Position numbers and translations under genes: made by a program
The notes under the pieces: model-generated
What the model saw: only the letters and a program-made list of their open reading frames with translations
The model's database searches: none
What the model was told of the DNA's origin: nothing
Assembly: GCF_029433445.1 (NCBI RefSeq)
Contig: NZ_JAQTIC010000009.1
Span: 41,202 to 65,201, forward strand
Length of the DNA: 24,000 bases
DNA from: Lactobacillus sp. ESL0701
Lineage (GTDB): Bacteria; Bacillota; Bacilli; Lactobacillales; Lactobacillaceae
Direction: 5' to 3'
Shown here: piece after piece, positions 5,028 through 21,067 of the stretch
Layout: each line of letters opens with the position of its first letter
How positions within the stretch are numbered: the stretch's first letter is position 1

Positions 5028-6369
5028 GACCGCTAATCCCAAACAACCTTTTTTTATTATTAATCAAGTAACGGTTTTTCCGCAGGATTTGCAAGTTTTA
5101 ATTAAATTGTACCAACCACTAGTTGGTGCTAGTGGTATTGCTCTTTACTTAACTTTGGTGGCTGATTATGATGCGGCGGCAATTTTGTCTGACAGTAAGG
5201 GCATTTACCATCTGCAAGAGCAGCTTGACTGCAGTTTGAAAGAATTGTTCCAAGCACTGCATAAGCTAGAGGCAGTAGGACTTGTTAAAACGCGCATTAT
5301 TAAGAATGAAATCATGGGGCAAGTGCTGCTGTTTTCTTTAACTTGCGTGCCCACTAGTAGTGAATTTTTTGCGACAGCCTTGCTGGCTAGTTTATTAAAA
5401 GAAAAAGTCGGCGTGACAACTTTTCAATCGTTGAGTCATGCTTTTGCTCGGGAAAATAAGCGTAGGGAGAATCAGGTTAACGGCATGCAAAATGCTAAGG
5501 ATGTTTCCGCATCATTTATGGATGTTTTTCGTTTGCCAGATGAGGAAGCAATTAGTCCCTCGCAAGATGTCCAGCAAGCAGCCCAAGAAAATCAAGCTCA
5601 GCCAGCTGCTAAGGCCAGGGTTAACGAGCAAGATACGATTGACTGGCAGTTTATGAAGGAGCAGTTTGAAATTTACCAAATTGCTGCAAGTGAAATTGAC
5701 AAAAATCAGGCGGCGATTAGGGGAATAATGCGCACTTACGGCTTGTCGGAGCAGGAATTTGTTGACGAAACCTTGCCATGCCTGCATGACAGTTATGAAC
5801 TTAATATGCCGCAGATTAAGCGAACCATTGCGGAAAATATTCACGCTGAAGGCACGCGCAAAAATTTACAGCAAACACAAGATCAACAAGCTTCAATTCA
5901 AGACAATTCTAGTTTGAGCCTGCGTGACCAGCGAATTTTGCAGTTAGCGCAGACGAAGTCACCGGCGCAATTTTTGTACCGCTTGAAGACTGACAAGCAT
6001 GATTATGTTGATGCCAGTGAATATAAAGTGCTGGATAATCTGTATAATCAAAAAGATATTCCAGCAGAATTACTCAATATCTTGACCTATGCCTGCTTGA
6101 ACAGTGGACCGTCGGTGTCTTATCGTTTGGCTAATACAATTCTGCATGATTGGCTGCAGCATGGTGTTAAGACAGGCAGTCAGGCTTTGGAATATATGGA
6201 GAAGCGTCAGCAGAAGAAGAGTTACTATCCTCGTTATTCGACAAAAACTAAAAAGGTTGAAAAGGGTACCGACTGGAGTAAGCATGATAAGACAGTTCAA
6301 ACTGATAAGACGGCTAGTGAGTTGAAGGATTTTCTTAAGAATTTAGAGGATCAAACTGGACTTAGGTAG
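5020..6369 (+). CDS. dnaB: Replication initiation and membrane attachment protein, Firmicute DnaB type (not the helicase)
   Basis: Position between nrdR and dnaI matches the Bacillus and lactobacilli order. The ATG at 5020 has GAGGAGAAGG at 5001-5010. The protein is about 450 aa with a Q/E-rich linker, typical of this family. It overlaps the nrdR end by 8 nt. Confidence 0.8.
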   Translation: MFETANPKQPFFIINQVTVFPQDLQVLIKLYQPLVGASGIALYLTLVADYDAAAILSDSKGIYHLQEQLDCSLKELFQALHKLEAVGLVKTRIIKNEIMGQVLLFSLTCVPTSSEFFATALLASLLKEKVGVTTFQSLSHAFARENKRRENQVNGMQNAKDVSASFMDVFRLPDEEAISPSQDVQQAAQENQAQPAAKARVNEQDTIDWQFMKEQFEIYQIAASEIDKNQAAIRGIMRTYGLSEQEFVDETLPCLHDSYELNMPQIKRTIAENIHAEGTRKNLQQTQDQQASIQDNSSLSLRDQRILQLAQTKSPAQFLYRLKTDKHDYVDASEYKVLDNLYNQKDIPAELLNILTYACLNSGPSVSYRLANTILHDWLQHGVKTGSQALEYMEKRQQKKSYYPRYSTKTKKVEKGTDWSKHDKTVQTDKTASELKDFLKNLEDQTGLR

Positions 6370-6379
6370 GTATTATACA

Positions 6380-7279
6380 ATGCAACAAATAGGCGATATT
6401 TTAAATAAAGTTAATCCTGAAATTAAAGAAAAATATAATTTAAATAAGATTTACCAACAAGTATTAACTGATCCGGATATTCAAAAATTTATTCATGAAA
6501 ATGAAAATAAAATTACTCAGAAAATGATAAACCAGAGTTTGTCAAATTTATATGAATATTATTCACAACGACATAATCAAGATCCTGTTATAACCGGATA
6601 TCGGCCTGAATTGTTTTTGAATCATAATGCAATTGATCTGCGATTTGTACCTGATTCAAATAAATTGATTCGAGATCGTGAAAACAATACTAAACTACAT
6701 TTGAACTTAATCGACTTGCCTGAAAAATTGCGTAAAGTTCATATAAGCGAAATTGATTTGACTAATGAGCGAAAAGGCGTGGTTGACTTAATAATTAAAT
6801 TTTTATCTAAATATAGACGTAATCCTCATCAGAAGGGACTTTATTTAGAGGGAAATTTTGGAGTAGGTAAGACATACATTTTAGCAGGACTTGCTAATCA
6901 TGTAGCTGCTATGAACAAGAATGTTGTCTTTTTACATGTACCAACATTTATTGCAAAGTTATCGAGTCATTTTGAAGATAATAGTTTGCAAAATGAAATT
7001 GATCGTGTGAGTCAGTGTGATTTATTAATTTTAGATGATATTGGTGCAGAAACTTTGAGTCAATGGTCACGTGATGATGTGTTAGGTGTTATTTTACAAG
7101 CGCGTATGGATAATGTTCTGCCAACATTTTTTTCATCTAATATAGATATGGATAAACTTGAAGAACATTTTAAGGTGACTAAAAATGCTGTTGAGCCAGT
7201 TAAGGCAGCTCGTTTAATGGAAAGGATAAGAACTTTAGCCAAAGAAGTAGAAATTAAAGGAAAAAATAGAAGAAGATAA
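6380..7279 (+). CDS. dnaI: Primosomal protein DnaI (helicase loader, AAA+)
   Basis: Walker A GNFGVGKTY and Walker B LLILDDIGAE. The size and the position after dnaB fit DnaI. The gene is noticeably AT-rich compared with dnaB. Confidence 0.88.
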   Translation: MQQIGDILNKVNPEIKEKYNLNKIYQQVLTDPDIQKFIHENENKITQKMINQSLSNLYEYYSQRHNQDPVITGYRPELFLNHNAIDLRFVPDSNKLIRDRENNTKLHLNLIDLPEKLRKVHISEIDLTNERKGVVDLIIKFLSKYRRNPHQKGLYLEGNFGVGKTYILAGLANHVAAMNKNVVFLHVPTFIAKLSSHFEDNSLQNEIDRVSQCDLLILDDIGAETLSQWSRDDVLGVILQARMDNVLPTFFSSNIDMDKLEEHFKVTKNAVEPVKAARLMERIRTLAKEVEIKGKNRRR

Positions 7280-7302
7280 AATATAGTTTCAAAGTATTTT
7301 TA

Positions 7303-7345
7303 ACCTACCAATTGAGAAAAACTTACTTGGTAGGTATTTTTATTG
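7303..7345 (+). terminator. Rho-independent terminator after dnaI
   Basis: acctaccaa (7303-7311) pairs with ttggtaggt (7327-7335). The hairpin is followed by atttttatt. Confidence 0.7.
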
Positions 7346-7402
7346 ATTTTTGTTTTATAATTAAAATTATAGATTTACGTATCAAGTGGAGAAATGATAA
7401 GA

Positions 7403-8974
7403 ATGACAAATAATAGAGAATCTCAAGAGACAGTTCAACGACAGGAATTACATCGAAAAATTTGGGCAATTGCTGATAATGTTCGTGGAGCAGTAGATGG
7501 ATGGGATTTTAAACAGTATGTTCTTGGAATTTTGTTTTATCGCTTTATTTCAGAAAATATGACAGAATTTTTTAATTCAGCTGAGCATGAAGCTGGAGAT
7601 GATGATTTTGATTATACTGAATTATCTGATGAAGAGGCACGAGAGGATTTTGAGCCAGGAACAATTGAAGATAAGGGCTTTTTTATTTTACCTAGTCAAT
7701 TATTTGCTAATGTTTTAAAAGCTTCAAAAAACAATGAGAATCTAAATACTGATTTGGCTAATATTTTCAAAAGTATAGAAAAAAGTGCTGAAGGTCATCC
7801 ATCTGAAGATAATATTAATGGCTTATTTGCTGATATTGATACTACTAGTAATAGATTAGGCGGAACTGTTAAAGAAAAAAATGATCGTTTAAGAAAAATT
7901 CTTCAAGGTATTGCTAATATTCAATTTGATAATTTTCAAGATAATGATATCGATGCTTTTGGTGATGCTTATGAATACTTAATTTCAAATTACGCTAGTA
8001 ATGCTGGAAAATCTGGAGGGGAATTTTTTACACCACAAACTGTATCTAAATTGCTTGCTAGAATAGTTACTGATGGTAAAACTGAAATTAATAAAGTATA
8101 CGATCCAACATGTGGAAGTGGCTCTCTACTACTACAGATGAAAAAACAATTTGATGATCATGTAATTAAAGAGGGGTTTTTTGGTCAAGAAATTAATATG
8201 ACAAATTACAATATGGCACGCATGAATATGTTTTTACATGATGTCAATTATAGTGATTTTTCAATTAAGCGCGGTGATACGCTTTTGCATCCAATGCATG
8301 AAAATGATAAACCATTCGATGCAATTGTTTCTAATCCACCATATTCTCAAAAGTGGCCTGGCAATAATGATCCAACTTTGATTAACGATCCACGTTTTGC
8401 ACCAGCTGGTAAATTAGCACCAAAGAATTATGCTGATTATGCCTTTATCTTACATTGTCTCAGTTATCTTTCTTCACAAGGATTGGCAGCAATAGTTTGT
8501 TTTCCAGGTATTTTTTATCGTAAAGGTGCAGAAAAAACTATTAGACAATACCTGGTTGATAATAACTTTATTGATTGTGTAATTGCTTTACCAGAAAATT
8601 TGTTTTTTGGTACAACAATAGCAACTTGTATTATGGTGCTGTCAAAACATAAGAAAGATAATACAACACTTTTCATTGATGCCAGTAAAGAATTTCAAAA
8701 AGAAACAAACAATAATATTTTAAATAATGATAATATTACTCATATTGTTCAAGAATTTCGTGAACGTAAAGATATTGATTACTTTGCTAAAAATATTAGT
8801 CATGATGAAATTGCTAAAAATGACTACAATATGTCGGTTTCAACTTACGTTGAAAAGGAAGATACACGAGAAAAAATTGATATTGATGTTTTGAATAAGC
8901 AAATTGATCAAACTGTTAAAAAGATTGATCAATTAAGAGCTGATATTAACAAAATAGTTAAGGAATTATTGTAA
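7403..8974 (+). CDS. hsdM: Type I restriction-modification system, N6-adenine DNA methyltransferase subunit HsdM
   Basis: HsdM N-terminal domain ([36 protein letters not shown]). AdoMet motif I is [10 protein letters not shown] and catalytic motif IV is NPPYSQKW. The ATG at 7403 has better spacing to GGAGA (7387-7391) than the ATG at 7394. Either start is possible. Confidence 0.93.
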
Positions 8975-8992
8975 GTAAAGAAGGTGAGGCAA

Positions 8993-10819
8993 ATGTCAAA
9001 GATTGATGAATTGCTAAAAGATGAACATGTTGAATGGAAAAAATTGGGAAGTGTTCTAAATTATGAACAACCAACTAAGTATATTGTTAGTTCTACCAAC
9101 TATGACTCAAGTTATAAAATACCAGTCTTAACTGCAGGTCAAACTTTTATATTAGGATATACAAATGATAAAGACGGAATATATATTGCTTCAAAAGATG
9201 AACCGGTAATTATTTTTGATGACTTTACAACTTCTAGTCATTGGGTTGACTTTGACTTTAAGGTCAAATCGTCTGCAATGAAATTACTTAGACCTAAAAA
9301 TAATGAGATAAATTTGAGATATTGCTATCATTATATAAAAACAATAAGTATAGATATAGCGGAACATAAGCGAATGTGGATTTCCAAATTTTCACAAATA
9401 AAGATACCAGTTCCTTCTCTTGAAGTTCAACAAAAAATAGTAGAAATACTTGACAAATTCACAGATTATGTTACTGAATTACAGTCTGAATTACAGTCTG
9501 AATTACAGTCTAGACAACAACAATATTCTTATTATAGAGACAAATTATTATCTGAGGAATATTTGACTAAACTCTCTGAAAAGCTTGATAAACTAGGGGG
9601 GAAGAAGCAAGAAGTTAATTGGGTTCTTCTTTCTGACGTTGCAAAAATAAAAAATGGAAAAGATTGGAAATCTCTTGGCAAAGGTAAAGTTCCAGTTTAT
9701 GGCAGTGGTGGAAAAATGAATATTTCGGTTAATAAATCTGCATATTCTAAACCAACTGTATTAATTCCACGAAAAGGTTCAATAGATAATGCTTTTTACC
9801 TTGATGAACCTTTTTGGAATGTTGATACTATTTTTTATACTGAAATTGATGAAACTAGAATTATACCAAAGTATTTTTTCTATTTTGTTCAGAGCTTTGA
9901 TGTATCTCGATTGAGTACTAATCCTACTAGACCTAGTTTAACGCAAACAGATTTAAATAAAATACAGATACCAATACCACCTCTATTGATTCAAAATCAG
10001 GTTGTTTCGGTACTAGATAGATTTCAAGATTTGTTGAATAATACAGAAGGATTATTACCAGAAGAAATAGACCAAAGGCAAAAGCAATACGAATATTATC
10101 GTGATCAGCTCTTGACATTTGACTTTAATATGATAAGAACGAACGAACGAACGAACGAACGAACGATAACTAATTACTTCTTTGATATTTTAAATGCTGC
10201 CGCTAAAGCAGTTGGAATAAGACTAACTGGTGGCGTGGAATGGAAAACATTAGGAGAAATCACTGAAAGAGTTTCAACAGTTAAGTTTGAAAATGACACT
10301 AAATCATATTTTTATATTGACTTATCTTCTGTTGATAGACAAAACCATGTAGTAGTAACTGCTTCTTTAGTTAATAGACTAACAGCTCCAAGTAGGGCAA
10401 AACAGTTGATTAAGGAACATGATATTCTATTTGGTGGAACTCGCCCAATGTTAAAAAGATTTGCATATGTTAATAAAAAATTTGATGGTCAGATTGCAAG
10501 TACAGGATATACAGTACTAAGATGTAATAATTCAAATGTTATTTCTAAATTTATTTATTATCAAATTCAAACAAATAAATTCTTTAATTATATTAAAAAT
10601 ATTCAGAAAGGAACAAGTTATCCATCAGTAACAGATAATCAAGTGAAAAAATATAAAGTGCTAATTCCGACATATACAATTCAAGCCGAAATAGTAAAAG
10701 CATTAGATAGATTTAATACTCTAGTTAATAATATATCTGAAGGCTTACCTAAAGAAATTGAATTGAGACAAAAGCAGTATGAATATTATCGGGAACAATT
10801 ATTTGATTTTAAGAAGTAA
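8993..10819 (+). CDS. hsdS: Type I R-M specificity subunit HsdS, atypical 608-aa form with three TRDs and three conserved helices
   Basis: TRD1 is about 9029-9412 (EWKKLG...[14 protein letters not shown]...[11 protein letters not shown]). CR1 is 9413-9553. TRD2 is about 9608-9967. CR2 is 9968-10126 ([26 protein letters not shown]). A linker carrying (GAAC)7 follows. TRD3 is about 10235-10663 (VEWKTLGEI...APSRA...STGYTVLR). CR3 is 10664-10816 ([26 protein letters not shown]). The ATG at 8993 follows AAGGTGAGG. The track's 8984 start is a GTG. Confidence 0.9.
9474..9511 (+). repeat. Perfect 12-bp tandem repeat (ctgaattacagt) x3 plus 2 nt, in frame, inside the hsdS central conserved region
   Basis: Units lie at 9474-9485, 9486-9497 and 9498-9509. 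They encode [13 protein letters not shown], just upstream of the RQQQYSYYR helix. Confidence 0.95.
10137..10166 (+). repeat. Tetranucleotide simple-sequence repeat (GAAC)7 plus GA inside hsdS
   Basis: Seven perfect GAAC units span 10137-10164 and encode [10 protein letters not shown]. The flank gaTAAcTAAtt carries a TAA in each of the two alternative frames. Confidence 0.97.
10167..10819 (+). other. Distal half-hsdS module (TRD3 plus C-terminal-type conserved helix), currently fused in frame to hsdS
   Basis: It has the architecture of a single-TRD HsdS half. No ATG lies between the SSR and TRD3; the first in-frame ATG is at 10448, inside the TRD. The only nearby start is the GTG at 10235, which abuts GGTGG with no spacing. 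Translation therefore appears to depend on read-in from upstream. Confidence 0.6.
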
Positions 10820-10837
10820 TAAATTAAGGGAGATGCA

Positions 10838-11977
10838 ATGAAGGATAAAGAGTTTGCTTCGCTAAATGACGTAGCAAAAGATCTCAAAAAAAGTAATAAG
10901 AAAGTTACATTATTGTATGCGTTTAATGCAACGGGCAAGACAAGACTTTCTATGAAATTTAAAGATCTTGTAAATGAGACTGATGATAGTGGAGAAGAAG
11001 TTAAGCATATTATTTATTTCAATGCATTCACCGAAGATTTATTTTATTGGGATAATGATTTAGAAAATAATTTAGAACGTATTTTAAAAATAAATACTTC
11101 TTCAGCTTTTATTACATTGATTAAAAATCAAGGCATGGAGAATAGAATAGCAGAAAAATTTCGTGAATTTGCTTCCTCAAAGATTGAGCCACAAATAAAT
11201 GTTGAGACTGGTGAAATTACTTTTAGTATTCCAACTGGTGATAATGAAGCGGTTGATAATATTAAAATTTCAAAAGGTGAAGAAAGCATCTTTATTTGGT
11301 CAGTTTTTTATGTTTTGTTAGAAACCATTATTTCTGAATTAAATGAAGATAAAGAAGATCGTAGCACTAATGAATTTAATCAAATTCATTATATTTTTAT
11401 TGATGATCCAATTTCATCTTTAGATGATAATAATGCAATTGATACAGCGATTGACCTAAAAGAATTAATTGTAGGTTCCAGAAATGAAGATTTGCACTTT
11501 ATTATTTCCACCCATCATGCTCTATTTTATAATGTTTTGTTTAATGAACTTAGGCGTGATCGAAATATTAAAGATAATAAAGTTTCTTTCTTTTCTCTGC
11601 AGAAAAAAGAAAATGAAATTGGTTATGTTTTAAATAGTCAAAATGATTCACCTTTTGGTTATCATTTGATTGTAAAAGAAGAAATAGAAAATGCAATTAA
11701 AGAAAACCGAATTAAAAAATATCATTTTTTGTTGTTTAGAAATCTTTTAGAAAAAACTGCTACTTATTTAGGTTACAAAAATTGGAGTGAGCTTATAATT
11801 GGCGATGATATTTCAGAAGATAATAGGAATGGATACGTTCGTAGAATTAACTTATACAGTCATAGTAAACAGGCAGACCTTGAATATAAAGAATTGCGGC
11901 CTGAAGAAAAAAATATGTTAAAACTACTCTTTAATAATTTTATTAAAGAGTTTAAGTGGGAGGTAAAAAATGACTGA
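10838..11977 (+). CDS. prrC: PrrC-like anticodon nuclease (ABC/AAA_13-type NTPase domain plus C-terminal RNase domain)
   Basis: It lies between hsdS and hsdR, the prr-locus position. Walker A is AFNATGKT (aa 28-35), an ABC-signature-like motif is ISKGEES (aa 144-150), Walker B is YIFIDDPISSLDD (aa 185-197) and the H-loop is STHH (aa 224-227). C-terminal R301-x3-E305 (FRNLLEKT) and H342 (NLYSHS) match the spacing of the PrrC Arg-Glu-His triad (R320/E324/H356 in E. coli). Length is 379 aa versus about 396 aa for E. coli PrrC. RBS AGGGAG at 10826-10831. Confidence 0.75.
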   Translation: MKDKEFASLNDVAKDLKKSNKKVTLLYAFNATGKTRLSMKFKDLVNETDDSGEEVKHIIYFNAFTEDLFYWDNDLENNLERILKINTSSAFITLIKNQGMENRIAEKFREFASSKIEPQINVETGEITFSIPTGDNEAVDNIKISKGEESIFIWSVFYVLLETIISELNEDKEDRSTNEFNQIHYIFIDDPISSLDDNNAIDTAIDLKELIVGSRNEDLHFIISTHHALFYNVLFNELRRDRNIKDNKVSFFSLQKKENEIGYVLNSQNDSPFGYHLIVKEEIENAIKENRIKKYHFLLFRNLLEKTATYLGYKNWSELIIGDDISEDNRNGYVRRINLYSHSKQADLEYKELRPEEKNMLKLLFNNFIKEFKWEVKND

Positions 11978-14900
11978 ATCACATTTGAAATATAAAGTGA
12001 AGGTACCAGTTGCAGAATTACCTAACCAAATTATTCTCGCTGAATTTAAACCTAGGGAGCATGTACAAAAGAGTTATCAAACAGAAGCTGAATTAGAAGA
12101 AAATTTGCTTATTAGATTACAAGCTCAAGGCTATGAATTCTTATCTGCAAGTTCTTCTGCGGATTTATATGTTAATTTGAAAAAGCAAATTGAAAAGCTA
12201 AATAAAGTTGAATTTACGTCAAAAGAATGGCAACGCTTTTTGAATGAATATCTTGATAAGCCCAATGACGGAATGATTGAGAAAACACGTAAAGTCCAGA
12301 TTGATAGCGTCAAAGATTTTATTTTTGATGATGGTCATTTGAAAAATATCAAAATAATTGATAAAAAGTGTCTTAGTAACAATTATGTACAAGTAGTTCA
12401 TCAGATTAGCCAAACTGGGACGCATCATAATCGTTATGATGTAACTATTTTAGTTAACGGGCTTCCCTTAGTGCATATTGAGCTAAAAAAGCGTGGCGTC
12501 AACCTTCACGAAGCATTTAATCAAATTCATAGATACAGTAAAGAAAGTTTCAATTCAGATAATTCTTTATATAAATATGTTCAGCTTTTTGTCATTTCTA
12601 ACGGAACATACACAAGATATTTTGCCAATACTACCGCACAGGATAAAAATCATTATGAATTTACATGTGAATGGGCGGATGTTAAAAATCGACCAATTAG
12701 AGATTTAGAAGATTTTACAGCTACTTTTTTTGATAAGACTACTTTATTGGAAATAATTACAAAATATTGCGTTTTTAATTCTGATAACAAACTTTTGGTT
12801 ATGAGACCATATCAAATTGCAGCAACTGAACGAATTTTGTGGAAAATTCGTTCGAGTTATTTATCAGGAAAAGCTGGAACAATTGATGCAGGTGGGTATA
12901 TTTGGCATACTACGGGTTCTGGTAAAACCCTAACTTCTTTTAAAGTTGCTAGGTTGGTTACTCAATTAGATTACATTGCTAAAGTGTTTTTTGTTGTAGA
13001 TAGAAAAGATTTAGACTATCAAACAATGAAAGAATATCAAAGTTTTGAAAAAGACAGCGTTAATGGTAGCAAAAATACTAAAGCATTGAAGCAAAATATT
13101 GAAAAAGAAGATAATAAAATTGTTGTTACGACAATTCAAAAACTAAATGAGTTTGTAAAAAAGAATCCTAATCATGAAATATATCAGAAGCATTGCGTTT
13201 TAATTTATGATGAATGTCATCGTTCACAATTTGGTGAGGCGCAAAAAAATATTAGGAAACATTTTAAATATTATTATCAATTTGGTTTTACAGGAACACC
13301 GATTTTCCCTGAAAATGCTGCTGGTGCAGAAACTACAGGTAGCATTTTTGGAGCACAGTTGCATAGTTATATTATTACTGATGCAATTCGCGATAAAAAA
13401 GTATTAAAATTTATGGTTGACTACAATGATAGTAGGCCAATTTTTAAATCTGCAGAAATTGAACAAGATGAAAATGAGTTAGCTAAAATAAAAACTAAAA
13501 AGTTATTACTGCATCCTGATAGAATTCATGAAATTACTAAATATATTCTCAAAAATTACGATCTCAAAACACACAGAAATGAGCAATATGATATTAAGAG
13601 TAAACGCTTGAATGGTTTTACTGCTATGTTTGCTGTACAGAATATTGAAGCTGCAAGGTTATATTATGAAGAATTTAAAAAGCAGCAAAAGAATATACCT
13701 GAAGATAAGCGATTGAGAATAGCTACTATTTTTAGTTTTGCAGCTAATGGTGAGCAAGATGCAGTTGGTAGTATTGCCGATGAAAATTTTGATCCTAGTA
13801 AACTAAATTATAGTGATAAGGAATTTTTGGATGAAGCGATTAAGGATTACAATAATTTCTTTACTCCTAAAAAAAATTACTCAACTGATGGCAAGTTATT
13901 TCAGAATTATTATCAAGATTTATCCAAGGAAGTAAAAAATAGAGAAATAGATTTGTTGATTGTAGTTGGTATGTTTTTGACTGGATTTGATGCACCAACT
14001 TTGAATACTCTATTTGTTGACAAAAATCTTAGATATCATGGATTAATTCAAGCTTTTTCTAGAACTAACCGGATTTTAAATAAAGTTAAAACTTTTGGTA
14101 ACATTGTTTGTTTTCGTGATTTACAAAAACCAACTGAAGATGCAATTAAGATTTTTGGTGATAGTAATAGTGTTAATGTGATTCTTGAGAGAAGTTATCA
14201 AGATTATTTAAATGGTTTTGTTGAAGAAGAAACTGGGAAAGTTGTTAAAGGATATAAAGACCTATGTAATGAAATGATTGACAAGTTTCCTGAACCAACA
14301 AAAATTGAAACAGATTCTGATAAAAAGGAATTCGTCCAATTGTTTGGGGAAATTTTGAAATCTGATAATATTTTAAAAAATTATGATTCATATCAAGATT
14401 TTGATCAAATTATTTCTGATAGACAATTACAGGATATGAAGAGTACATACGCGGATATTCGCGAAGAGGTTTTGGAAGAGAAGCACAATAAAGCTGCTAG
14501 TGATACATCTTCAAAAATTGATTATTCTGATATTGAATTTCAAGTTGATTTATTGAAGACAGATGAAATTAATCTTGATTACATTTTAAAATTAATTTTT
14601 GAAAAGTCTAAAAAGAACAAAGATATTGGTTCGTTAAAAGTTGAGGTAAAGCGAATTATCCGGTCAAGTCTAGGTATTCGTGCTAAGGAGGATTTGATTT
14701 TGGGTTTTATCAATCATACTGATTTATCCAAATTTGAAAATTCTTCTGAAATTCTTGATTCATTTTATTCTTTTGCTAAAAAACAAAGAAAAGAAAATGT
14801 ACAAAAACTGATACAAGATGAACATTTAAAGGAAGGTGCGAATAACTTTATTGGAGATTCCATTGACAAGGGTTATGTTAATTATAATGGCTCTGAACTT

Positions 14901-15008
14901 GATAATATTTTACCTCCAGTTTCACGTAGACATGGTGCTCGTGAAGCAAAAAAACAGAGTATTTTAAGGAAAATACAAAAAATAGTAGAGGTCTTTTCAG
15001 AAACATAA
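11970..15008 (+). CDS. hsdR: Type I restriction enzyme, endonuclease/translocase subunit HsdR
   Basis: The PD-(D/E)xK nuclease core is YDVTILVNGLPLVHIELKK. SF2 helicase motifs are I (HTTGSGKT), II (YDECHRSQ), III (GFTGTP) and VI (QAFSRTNR). At 1012 aa it is in the size range of EcoR124I-type HsdR. The ATG at 11970 follows GGGAGG and overlaps the prrC end by 8 nt. Confidence 0.93.
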   Translation: MTESHLKYKVKVPVAELPNQIILAEFKPREHVQKSYQTEAELEENLLIRLQAQGYEFLSASSSADLYVNLKKQIEKLNKVEFTSKEWQRFLNEYLDKPNDGMIEKTRKVQIDSVKDFIFDDGHLKNIKIIDKKCLSNNYVQVVHQISQTGTHHNRYDVTILVNGLPLVHIELKKRGVNLHEAFNQIHRYSKESFNSDNSLYKYVQLFVISNGTYTRYFANTTAQDKNHYEFTCEWADVKNRPIRDLEDFTATFFDKTTLLEIITKYCVFNSDNKLLVMRPYQIAATERILWKIRSSYLSGKAGTIDAGGYIWHTTGSGKTLTSFKVARLVTQLDYIAKVFFVVDRKDLDYQTMKEYQSFEKDSVNGSKNTKALKQNIEKEDNKIVVTTIQKLNEFVKKNPNHEIYQKHCVLIYDECHRSQFGEAQKNIRKHFKYYYQFGFTGTPIFPENAAGAETTGSIFGAQLHSYIITDAIRDKKVLKFMVDYNDSRPIFKSAEIEQDENELAKIKTKKLLLHPDRIHEITKYILKNYDLKTHRNEQYDIKSKRLNGFTAMFAVQNIEAARLYYEEFKKQQKNIPEDKRLRIATIFSFAANGEQDAVGSIADENFDPSKLNYSDKEFLDEAIKDYNNFFTPKKNYSTDGKLFQNYYQDLSKEVKNREIDLLIVVGMFLTGFDAPTLNTLFVDKNLRYHGLIQAFSRTNRILNKVKTFGNIVCFRDLQKPTEDAIKIFGDSNSVNVILERSYQDYLNGFVEEETGKVVKGYKDLCNEMIDKFPEPTKIETDSDKKEFVQLFGEILKSDNILKNYDSYQDFDQIISDRQLQDMKSTYADIREEVLEEKHNKAASDTSSKIDYSDIEFQVDLLKTDEINLDYILKLIFEKSKKNKDIGSLKVEVKRIIRSSLGIRAKEDLILGFINHTDLSKFENSSEILDSFYSFAKKQRKENVQKLIQDEHLKEGANNFIGDSIDKGYVNYNGSELDNILPPVSRRHGAREAKKQSILRKIQKIVEVFSET

Positions 15009-15032
15009 TATAAGTTTTCTATTAAAAAGTTC

Positions 15033-15060
15033 TTGCATTTAAATGTCGTTTGCGTATAAT
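15033..15060 (+). promoter_or_regulatory. Sigma-A promoter of the thrS leader
   Basis: -35 TTGCAT (15033-15038), a 16-nt spacer, then -10 TATAAT (15055-15060). Confidence 0.7.
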
Positions 15061-15066
15061 TAAGTG

Positions 15067-15279
15067 CAACGAATGAACATGATGTTACTCAACTCAGAGA
15101 GAAGGACGTTTTTCTGGAAGTCTTTCATGAGCAAGACCCCACTCATTCTACTAATAAAGGTTTTAACAAAGGCTGGATTCCATTATCAATCTTAAGAGAG
15201 GGTTAGAGGTACTCTAATCTATTTGGGTGGAACCGCGTTAATATACGTCCCAGTGCTTAATTGCACTGGGGCTTTTTTT
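15067..15279 (+). promoter_or_regulatory. T-box riboswitch leader (threonine-specific) with intrinsic terminator
   Basis: Stem I helices are GAATGA (15071-15076) with TCATTC (15143-15148), and CATGA (15078-15082) with TCATG (15125-15129). They enclose an internal loop containing ACC (15136-15138). An AGAGAG box lies at 15096-15101 and a distal TGGAA at 15115-15119. The T-box sequence atttGGGTGGAACCGCG lies at 15221-15237. The terminator is cccagtgc/gcactggg (15249-15270) plus T7. Confidence 0.85.
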
Positions 15280-20401: not shown

Positions 20402-20521
20402 TTAGTTGAGAACAAGAAGAAGCTCCCGCTTCTCGCCTAAGTTAAGTTGACCTCTGGGCTAATCGATATTTTCTGTTGATTATGGGCGGGTAACTTAATA
20501 CTCGCCCTTTTTCTTGTCCTC
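20402..20521 (+). promoter_or_regulatory. L20 (rplT) ribosomal-protein leader / transcription attenuator upstream of infC
   Basis: The leader is about 120 nt and structured. There is a small hairpin gaagc-tccc-gcttc (20419-20432). An intrinsic terminator gggcggg/ctcgccc (20484-20507) is followed by tttttctt. A long-range complement pairs 20408-22 (gagaacaagaagaag) with 20507-21 (ctttttcttgtcctc), 14/15 including one G-U. The position matches the Firmicute L20-dependent attenuator. Confidence 0.6.
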
Positions 20522-20542: not shown

Positions 20543-21067
20543 ATTATACCAAGGAATTTAATATTAAACGATCAAATTCGTTCACGCGAAGTTCGTTTAA
20601 TTAATGCAGATGGTGATCAAGTTGGTGTAGTAACTAAGACTGAAGCATTACGGCAAGCAAGTGTTGCGAATTTAGATTTAGTTCTAATTTCGCCTAATGC
20701 TAAGCCACCAGTTGCCCGCATCATGGACTATGGTAAGTACCGTTTTGAACAACAAAAGAAACTCAAAGAGTCTCGTAAGAAGTCCAAGACTGTCAGCGTT
20801 AAAGAAATCCGTTTAAGTCCAACCATTGAAGGTAACGACTTTAACACTAAGTTAAAGCACGCGCAAAAGTTCCTCACTAAAGAGGGTGCTAAGGTTCGTG
20901 TTTCGATTCGGTTCAGAGGTCGTGCAATCACCCACAAGGAATTAGGACGTGAAGTGCTGGAGAAGATGGCTGAAGCCACTGCGGATATTGCTACTGTGAT
21001 TAGCAAACCGAAGATGGAAGGTCGTTCAATGTTCTTAATACTCGCTCCTAAGAGTGACAAAAAGTAA
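20543..21067 (+). CDS. infC: Translation initiation factor IF-3, non-AUG start
   Basis: The frame is open back to a TGA at 20537-20539. The translation (I)[65 protein letters not shown] is a full IF-3 N-domain. The only plausible starts are ATT at 20543 or ATA at 20546, after GGAGGTG (20532-20538). The ORF-track ATG at 20723 truncates the protein. Confidence 0.85.

Follow-up and report, generated by a model that had tools for sequence, protein, structure and literature searches.

We analyzed a stretch of 24,000 nucleotides (nt) from Lactobacillus sp. ESL0701 (contig NZ_JAQTIC010000009.1; the whole stretch is hereafter called the window), focusing on an open reading frame (ORF) of 379 amino acids (aa) that begins with ATG at position 10838, ends at 11977 and lies between hsdS and hsdR of a Type IC restriction-modification (RM) operon. 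We assigned this ORF to prrC, in other words to the PrrC family of anticodon nucleases, on the basis of the PADLOC PrrC profile, the identity with the Escherichia coli protein and the conservation of essential residues. The gene is encoded on the forward strand, as are its motifs, the hsd genes and the hsdS repeats described below. Its product is predicted to comprise an N-terminal ABC-type NTPase (approximately aa 1–250) and a C-terminal all-alpha nuclease domain (approximately aa 255–379).

Within the NTPase part, the Walker A motif (P-loop) AFNATGKT was located at aa 28–35 (10919–10942), where K34, T35 and R36 correspond to K46, T47 and R48 of the E. coli protein (EcoPrrC), followed by SKGEE at aa 145–149, IFIDDPISSLDD at aa 186–197 and STHH at aa 224–227. 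The sequence YFNAFTEDLFYWDND at aa 60–74 (11015–11059) represents the PrrC box, an acidic and aromatic element that spans residues 68–94 of EcoPrrC and is confined to PrrC-family proteins (PMC1484252); its residues E66, W71, D72 and N73 are equivalent to the essential E88, W93, D94 and N95. The nuclease active-site region (11738–11865) contains invariant columns shared with EcoPrrC: one helix bears R301, N302 and E305, and R335-x2-N338-x3-H342 forms an Rx4-6H motif of the HEPN type (R335/R336...H342), the HEPN assignment being taken from PMC3710099. An original prediction, made by a model from the letters of the window, had proposed a PrrC-like anticodon nuclease here, and the 379-aa ORF, the NTPase motifs and R301, E305 and H342 were each found by scripted location at the residue it had claimed. 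The junctions were also as it had described, with hsdS ending at 10819, an 18-nt gap containing the Shine–Dalgarno sequence AAGGGAG before prrC, and an 8-nt overlap (ATGACTGA) between prrC and hsdR, which starts at 11970 and has the Shine–Dalgarno sequence GGGAGG just upstream. A scan for promoters and terminators was uninformative in the AT-rich DNA of the window (56 sites compared with 46 expected), so that we inferred the operon structure from the spacing of the genes only.

We compared the protein with profiles and sequence databases. The PADLOC PrrC profile PDLC02360 matched residues 5–377 over profile positions 17–349 of 372 (E = 2.4e-126, 419.7 bits), and the Pfam profile AAA_13 (PF13166) matched above its cut-off (41.3 bits compared with 36), covering only the C-terminal half; both of the profile searches that the original prediction had called for thus gave a positive result. 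BLASTP showed 45% identity (E = 5e-97) to a 396-aa E. coli protein annotated in RefSeq as "anticodon nuclease". This comparator is the copy on the chromosome of strain B1, which was found through an enterobacterial homologue and whose numbering reproduces the published EcoPrrC residues. No model matched the prrC product in the NCBIfam profile search, and the PDB sequence search yielded no match even at E <= 1. The E-values of the PADLOC and BLASTP matches (2.4e-126 and 5e-97) rule out a chance match at the sequence level.

We further examined the residues known to be required for activity, using an alignment of 12 PrrC sequences with the E. coli numbering. Invariant columns were found at K46, T47, R48, E88, W93, D94, N95, K168, D215, D216, S220 and D222 of EcoPrrC, as well as at T250, H251, N257, E262, H295, H315, R320, N321, E324, N352 and H356. 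In the NTPase domain, K143/K146 of the signature (K168/K171 in EcoPrrC), D189/D190 of Walker B (D215/D216), S193/S194/D196 of the D-loop (S219/S220/D222) and T225/H226 of the H-loop (T250/H251) were identical, and in the nuclease domain R301, N302, E305, R335, N338, H342, H276 and H296 correspond to R320, N321, E324, R349, N352, H356, H295 and H315. The proposed catalytic triad R301/E305/H342 thus shares invariant columns with R320/E324/H356. The original prediction had also claimed that the spacing of the triad reproduces that of EcoPrrC, which holds for R-x3-E and for the column-for-column alignment but not for the Arg-to-His distance (41 compared with 36 residues), the latter being longer in the window protein because of an insertion of approximately five residues. 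Meineke 2010 (PMC3025547, Table 1) listed 33 residues needed for EcoPrrC toxicity, and the window protein has the same residue at 29 of these positions. At the other four it differs by H225N, K245H, D276N (a variable column) and H297I; H225N is tolerated in EcoPrrC, and the position of H297 is occupied by Met in the toxic Streptococcus mutans PrrC (SmuPrrC) (PMC3025547). Judged by its sequence, the ORF at 10838–11977 belongs to the PrrC anticodon nuclease family and has retained intact NTPase and nuclease residues.

The full-length AlphaFold (AF2) model of the protein (mean predicted local distance difference test (pLDDT) score 78, predicted template modeling (pTM) score 0.68) contained no long coiled coil, and in a fold search its N-domain matched ABC heads of the SMC/Rad50 type (E ~1e-4, probability 1.0). 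The C-domain, when modeled alone, gave a confident all-alpha helical bundle (core pLDDT > 90). A fold search of this domain against the PDB returned no significant match; the best hit had E = 0.78, and HEPN toxins appeared only at E ~3. No PrrC structure was present among the matches of either the sequence search or the fold search of the PDB, so that any well-behaved PrrC homologue would have some value for structural work.

PrrC is a large and well-recognized family that is routinely detected by defense-annotation profiles. An exhaustive search of cluster representatives found 179 clusters (50% identity) related to the window protein at E <= 1e-30 and 771 at E <= 1e-3, and a word-indexed search found at least 7,983 clusters at 90% identity. 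The closest relative among the matches listed was from Enterococcus entomosocium (70% identical), and the closest relatives are named in RefSeq only as "AAA family ATPase"; streptococcal homologues were 46–48% identical. Homologues were also present on 113 plasmids, none of which was a Lactobacillaceae plasmid, and a search of phage genomes found no PrrC homologue. The original prediction had stated that no PrrC of lactobacilli was characterized, and our literature search similarly found no paper on PrrC in lactobacilli.

We then scanned species-representative genomes and obtained 563 relatives, of which 80 loci were kept for counting the gene order. hsdS lay directly upstream of prrC and a Type IC hsdR lay downstream on the same strand in all 80 loci, which came from many phyla, and hsdM lay further upstream in 74 of them; four of the other six had too little flanking sequence to show hsdM. 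Together with the same order in E. coli, this bears out the claim that hsdM-hsdS-X-hsdR is the hallmark of prr loci, and is in agreement with a previous report, according to which homologues of PrrC are "always linked to EcoprrI homologs" (PMC1484252). prrC and hsdR overlapped in 33 of 88 loci and were 1–50 nt apart in 44 of 88. Two further arrangements were observed in these loci. A RhuM-like gene (Virulence_RhuM) was present between hsdM and hsdS in some prr loci of Firmicutes (locus L086, 5009–6025; L087, 2636–3652; L001, 5110–6105), an association already noted by Anantharaman 2013 (PMC3710099), and approximately 10 related loci contained an additional 1–1.7 kb of DNA between prrC and hsdR.

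In the window, the gene order is the same as in the E. coli PrrC/EcoprrI locus (prrA-hsdM, prrB-hsdS, prrC, prrD-hsdR), represented in strain B1 by hsdM, hsdS, the 396-aa anticodon nuclease gene and hsdR. Both proteins combine an ABC-type NTPase with a C-terminal RNase and share the NTPase motifs and the PrrC box, both have a Type IC partner, and the overlap of 8 nt between prrC and hsdR occurs in the window as well as in E. coli and the closest relatives. The hsdR product of the window (11970–15008, 1012 aa; domains HSDR_N, SWI2_SNF2, T1R_D3-like and EcoR124_C) has the domain set of a Type IC subunit and is 55% identical over its full length to the product of the E. coli hsdR located after prrC. 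hsdM (7394–8974) encodes a Type I methyltransferase subunit of 526 aa with N6_Mtase and HsdM_N domains (TIGR00497, 704 bits). The window protein differs from EcoPrrC in that it is 17 residues shorter, lacking the N-terminal and acidic-loop inserts, and the two systems differ in the conservation of the tRNA-Lys recognition peptide (LARP), in the Gram-positive host and in the extended hsdS of the window, which appears switchable by a simple sequence repeat.

This hsdS gene (8984–10819) encodes an extended specificity subunit with three target recognition domains (TRDs), as judged from three Methylase_S stretches and three conserved-region (CR) motifs RxxQYxYYR in one frame. Read from GTG at 8984 the product has 611 aa; the true start is likely ATG at 8993, which gives 608 aa, as in the Logan gene call. 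A perfect 12-nt tandem repeat of CTGAATTACAGT (3.2 copies, 9474–9511), encoding (SELQ)x3, lies in the central conserved region of HsdS, and such a repeat is common in the Type IC hsdS genes of prr loci, with homologous repeats of three copies in L086 and two in L087. The repeat at 9474–9511 resembles a counterpart of the 12-bp spacer-length repeat of EcoR124I/II. A second perfect tract, (GAAC)x7.5 at 10137–10166, lies at the end of the two-TRD part and may act as a slipped-strand switch that yields either a two-TRD or a three-TRD protein; the third TRD with its conserved region (TRD 2b, 10167–10819) is translated only in the in-frame state of the tract. At the DNA level, CR3 and CR2 are 70% identical.

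We simulated the reading frames for different lengths of the tract. A gain or loss of one or two GAAC units led to a TAA stop immediately after the tract (393–397 aa), whereas the present length or a change of three units in either direction led to read-through into the third TRD (607–615 aa). The tract should therefore toggle the hsdS product between the two-TRD and three-TRD forms, and the partner restriction enzyme can probably change its specificity. The only other copy of the window locus (L082) has the same tract length. Variation was observed in a related locus: L086 and L087, both metagenomic, encode an identical PrrC (P0013), and L086 contains (AGCAC)11 and a fused HsdS of 651 aa, whereas L087 contains (AGCAC)4 and an HsdS split into 429 and 181 aa. 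Tract-length variation was thus seen only in this relative, and not within the species of the window. The prr locus of Streptococcus infantis carries (AGAGT)3 at the same place, followed by a third TRD, and among 82 prr loci scored a repeat tract with a third TRD was found in only three lineages, namely those of the window, of L086/L087 and of S. infantis.

The extended three-TRD hsdS is of a kind already described. Atack 2019 (PMC7383803) reported hsdS genes of this "extended" type, with a G[n] tract in Mannheimia haemolytica and an AAGAC[n] tract in Fusobacterium nucleatum, in which, as in the window, one frame encodes the three-TRD form and the other two frames a normal two-TRD HsdS, and the two forms methylate different motifs; the text of that paper has no mention of PrrC. 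The window gene differs from these in its GAAC unit, in its host and in its coupling to a PrrC guardian. In addition, G10 tracts were observed in or beside hsdS at L071 4875–4884 (Haemophilus parahaemolyticus) and L078 7377–7386 (Muribaculaceae), which are possible further phase-variable cases next to PrrC.

The hsdM-hsdS-prrC-hsdR block constitutes an insertion of approximately 7.7 kb (7280–15015) between dnaI and the T-box leader of thrS, and its GC content is approximately 0.29, compared with approximately 0.40 in the flanks. The synteny polA-fpg-coaE-nrdR-dnaB-dnaI-thrS is shared by Lactobacillus sp. ESL0703 and ESL0785, in which dnaI is followed directly by the thrS leader, in other words the site is empty, and the homology of ESL0703 resumes at position 15016 of the window. 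The block is therefore a horizontally acquired island that is absent from the closest Lactobacillus genomes. Neither an integrase nor flanking (direct) repeats were found for 7280–15015, and a plasmid search found no near-identical copy of the island. The windowed identity to ESL0703 was 90–96% in both flanks but 63–73% over approximately 6100–7279, where the GC content is also lower; this segment adjoins the island and includes the whole of dnaI together with the 3' end of dnaB. The best named DnaI matches were from Lactobacillus sp. ESL0703, ESL0679 and ESL0785 (66–70% identity). Entry by homologous recombination along with a foreign dnaI allele is the likeliest route, and dnaI, although essential for replication, seems to have given way to such an allele, imported with the RM-prrC block. 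Other RNA elements were also observed beyond the island. The T-box leader upstream of thrS (15060–15255) scored 56 bits (E = 8.5e-12), which is under the Rfam gathering score of 93, and its terminator hairpin lies at 15247–15272; further downstream, positions 20408–20519 hold a leader of the ribosomal protein L20 type (RF00558, 66 bits), ahead of an ORF at 20723.

Two other PrrC systems are informative for comparison. S. mutans PrrC (SMU.893) is, like the window protein, from a Firmicute host, located inside a Type I hsd locus and poor in LARP residues (3/11). It is toxic in yeast, and N6-threonylcarbamoyladenosine (t6A) is described as a positive determinant for it; its gene is separated from hsdR by a relBE pair, whereas in the window prrC overlaps hsdR. 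In our alignment, the streptococci were represented by the S. infantis and Streptococcus oralis loci in place of the S. mutans sequence. PrrC170 of Klebsiella quasipneumoniae belongs, as in the window, to a four-gene unit of Type I RM and PrrC (PMC11555353); its host is a proteobacterium. Since PrrC170 is active at 35% identity to EcoPrrC, a transfer of function across divergent PrrC proteins is supported.

We infer the activity, target, latency and trigger of the window PrrC by homology from E. coli, and the steps below follow the E. coli prr paradigm (PMC1484252, PMC3025547, PMC12707154). PrrC would be produced together with the restriction enzyme, to which it would bind and thereby remain latent. 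Once the Type IC enzyme is blocked by a phage anti-restriction protein, the ABC-type N-domain would activate the HEPN-type RNase at the C-terminus; in E. coli, activation requires that GTP be hydrolyzed and dTTP bound, and head-to-tail dimers are formed by the N-domains (PMC1484252, PMC3025547, PMC12707154). The RNase, which would be expected to be toxic on overexpression, would then cut the anticodon loop of a tRNA on the 5' side of the wobble base, leaving 2',3'-cyclic phosphate and 5'-OH ends, as a result of which translation would halt and the infection would be aborted. An abortive-infection effector that is freed when an anti-restriction protein neutralizes or binds Hsd proteins is also seen in PARIS and Ronin; their effectors are unrelated to PrrC, and the likeness is only a functional analogy. 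Taken together, we consider it highly probable that the window contains an intact PrrC-family anticodon nuclease within a horizontally acquired Type IC RM operon, and that it works as in the E. coli prr system.

Several points weigh against this conclusion. To our knowledge, there is no report of toxicity, of cleavage of a tRNA, of binding to the RM enzyme or of a phage phenotype for the window PrrC or for homologues more than 50% identical to it, and we know of no Stp-like trigger in lactobacillus phages. Apart from the tolerated H225N, the protein differs by K245H, D276N and H297I at positions essential in EcoPrrC. The assignment of the C-domain to HEPN rests on Anantharaman 2013 (PMC3710099) and the Rx4-6H motif, without a fold match. 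PrrC homologues from Neisseria and Xanthomonas were non-toxic in yeast (PMC3025547), and homology alone is therefore no guarantee of activity in a given assay. Finally, LARP is absent from the window protein, so that its target may differ from tRNA-Lys.

Among the alternatives, the protein might not be an anticodon nuclease at all but a generic AAA_13/ABC ATPase or a RloC-like protein, residing in the RM operon for another reason. The RefSeq label of the closest relatives, the lack of an NCBIfam match and the partial AAA_13 match are in keeping with this, but the PrrC-specific profile matched end to end at 420 bits, and the PrrC box and every nuclease residue are conserved; we regard this alternative as effectively refuted and its chance as very remote. 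RloC does share an ABC ATPase N-domain, a HEPN-type anticodon nuclease and the same Arg-Glu-His residues with the window protein; however, it has a long Rad50-like coiled coil with a zinc hook, is rarely linked to RM and excises the wobble nucleotide. We rejected a RloC identity on the length of 379 aa, the lack of a coiled-coil or zinc-hook insert, the PrrC box and the PrrC profile score, and the identity of a generic AAA_13 ATPase on the latter two. Instead of being an abortive-infection effector triggered by phage, prrC might also act mainly as an addiction (post-segregational killing) module by which the RM island is stabilized, in which case loss or disturbance of the RM complex would free the nuclease. 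A mobile-looking island without mobility genes of its own, the homologues on 113 plasmids and the toxicity of EcoPrrC expressed without its partner (PMC3025547) are consistent with such a role. Nevertheless, E. coli prr and PrrC170, which are the only systems tested, protect against phage, and EcoPrrC in its free form is unstable and restricts its own translation (PMC1484252). We consider a mainly addictive function improbable, although the two roles are compatible and not mutually exclusive.

The identity of the target is less certain. The LARP sequence 284-KYGDSNKSFSY-294 of EcoPrrC is replaced by SQNDSPFGY (11636–11662) in the window protein, which aligns as SQ--NDSPFGY with 2 of 11 residues identical and a deletion of two residues; the original prediction had left the target tRNA undefined, with which this lack of conservation agrees. 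Among the prr loci, a "DxPFxYH" variant occurred in 64 of 89 and a LARP-like sequence in 18–24. LARP marks only a subset of the PrrC family, and the Kaufmann group proposed that homologues without it have other RNA targets (Blanga-Kanfi 2006, PMC1484252). It is thus conceivable that the window protein is a genuine PrrC-family guardian of RM that, owing to the non-LARP specificity region, acts not on tRNA-Lys but on a different tRNA or some other RNA. The divergence of the LARP region, its frequency among the loci and the above proposal all favor this, yet we judge it a minority possibility, since LARP was not decisive for toxicity (Meineke 2010, PMC3025547) and depletion of tRNA-Lys and protection from T1 and T7 are retained by PrrC170 despite an identity of only 35% to EcoPrrC (PMC11555353). 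Moreover, t6A is cited in PMC7694415 as a positive determinant for both E. coli and S. mutans PrrC, and the non-LARP SmuPrrC is dependent on t6A37, a modification present in tRNA-Lys. Because of EcoPrrC, PrrC170 and SmuPrrC, the likeliest substrate of the window PrrC would be a t6A-bearing tRNA-Lys(UUU), with about an even chance.

The guardian and the hsdS switch might also be functionally coupled, if slippage of the (GAAC)n tract altered both the form of HsdS that joins HsdM and HsdR and the access of ribosomes to the start of prrC. We regard such coupling as doubtful; if it were true, subpopulations would differ in restriction specificity and in the latency or amount of PrrC, and the locus would represent a bet-hedging, phase-variable abortive-infection system. 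The PrrC family, its genomic habit and the extended hsdS were all already known, and the locus leaves current concepts unchanged and is of modest interest in this respect. It provides a Lactobacillus example for a family that has been tested in few bacteria (E. coli, one isolate of Klebsiella and, in part, S. mutans), and a compact natural pairing of an RM guardian with a specificity-switching hsdS, in which the dependence of PrrC latency on the form of HsdS can be asked. Phage resistance in lactobacilli is of industrial and ecological interest, and a Type IC enzyme guarded through tRNA cleavage would have an effect on the host range of phages and possibly on transformation work relying on anti-restriction tricks.

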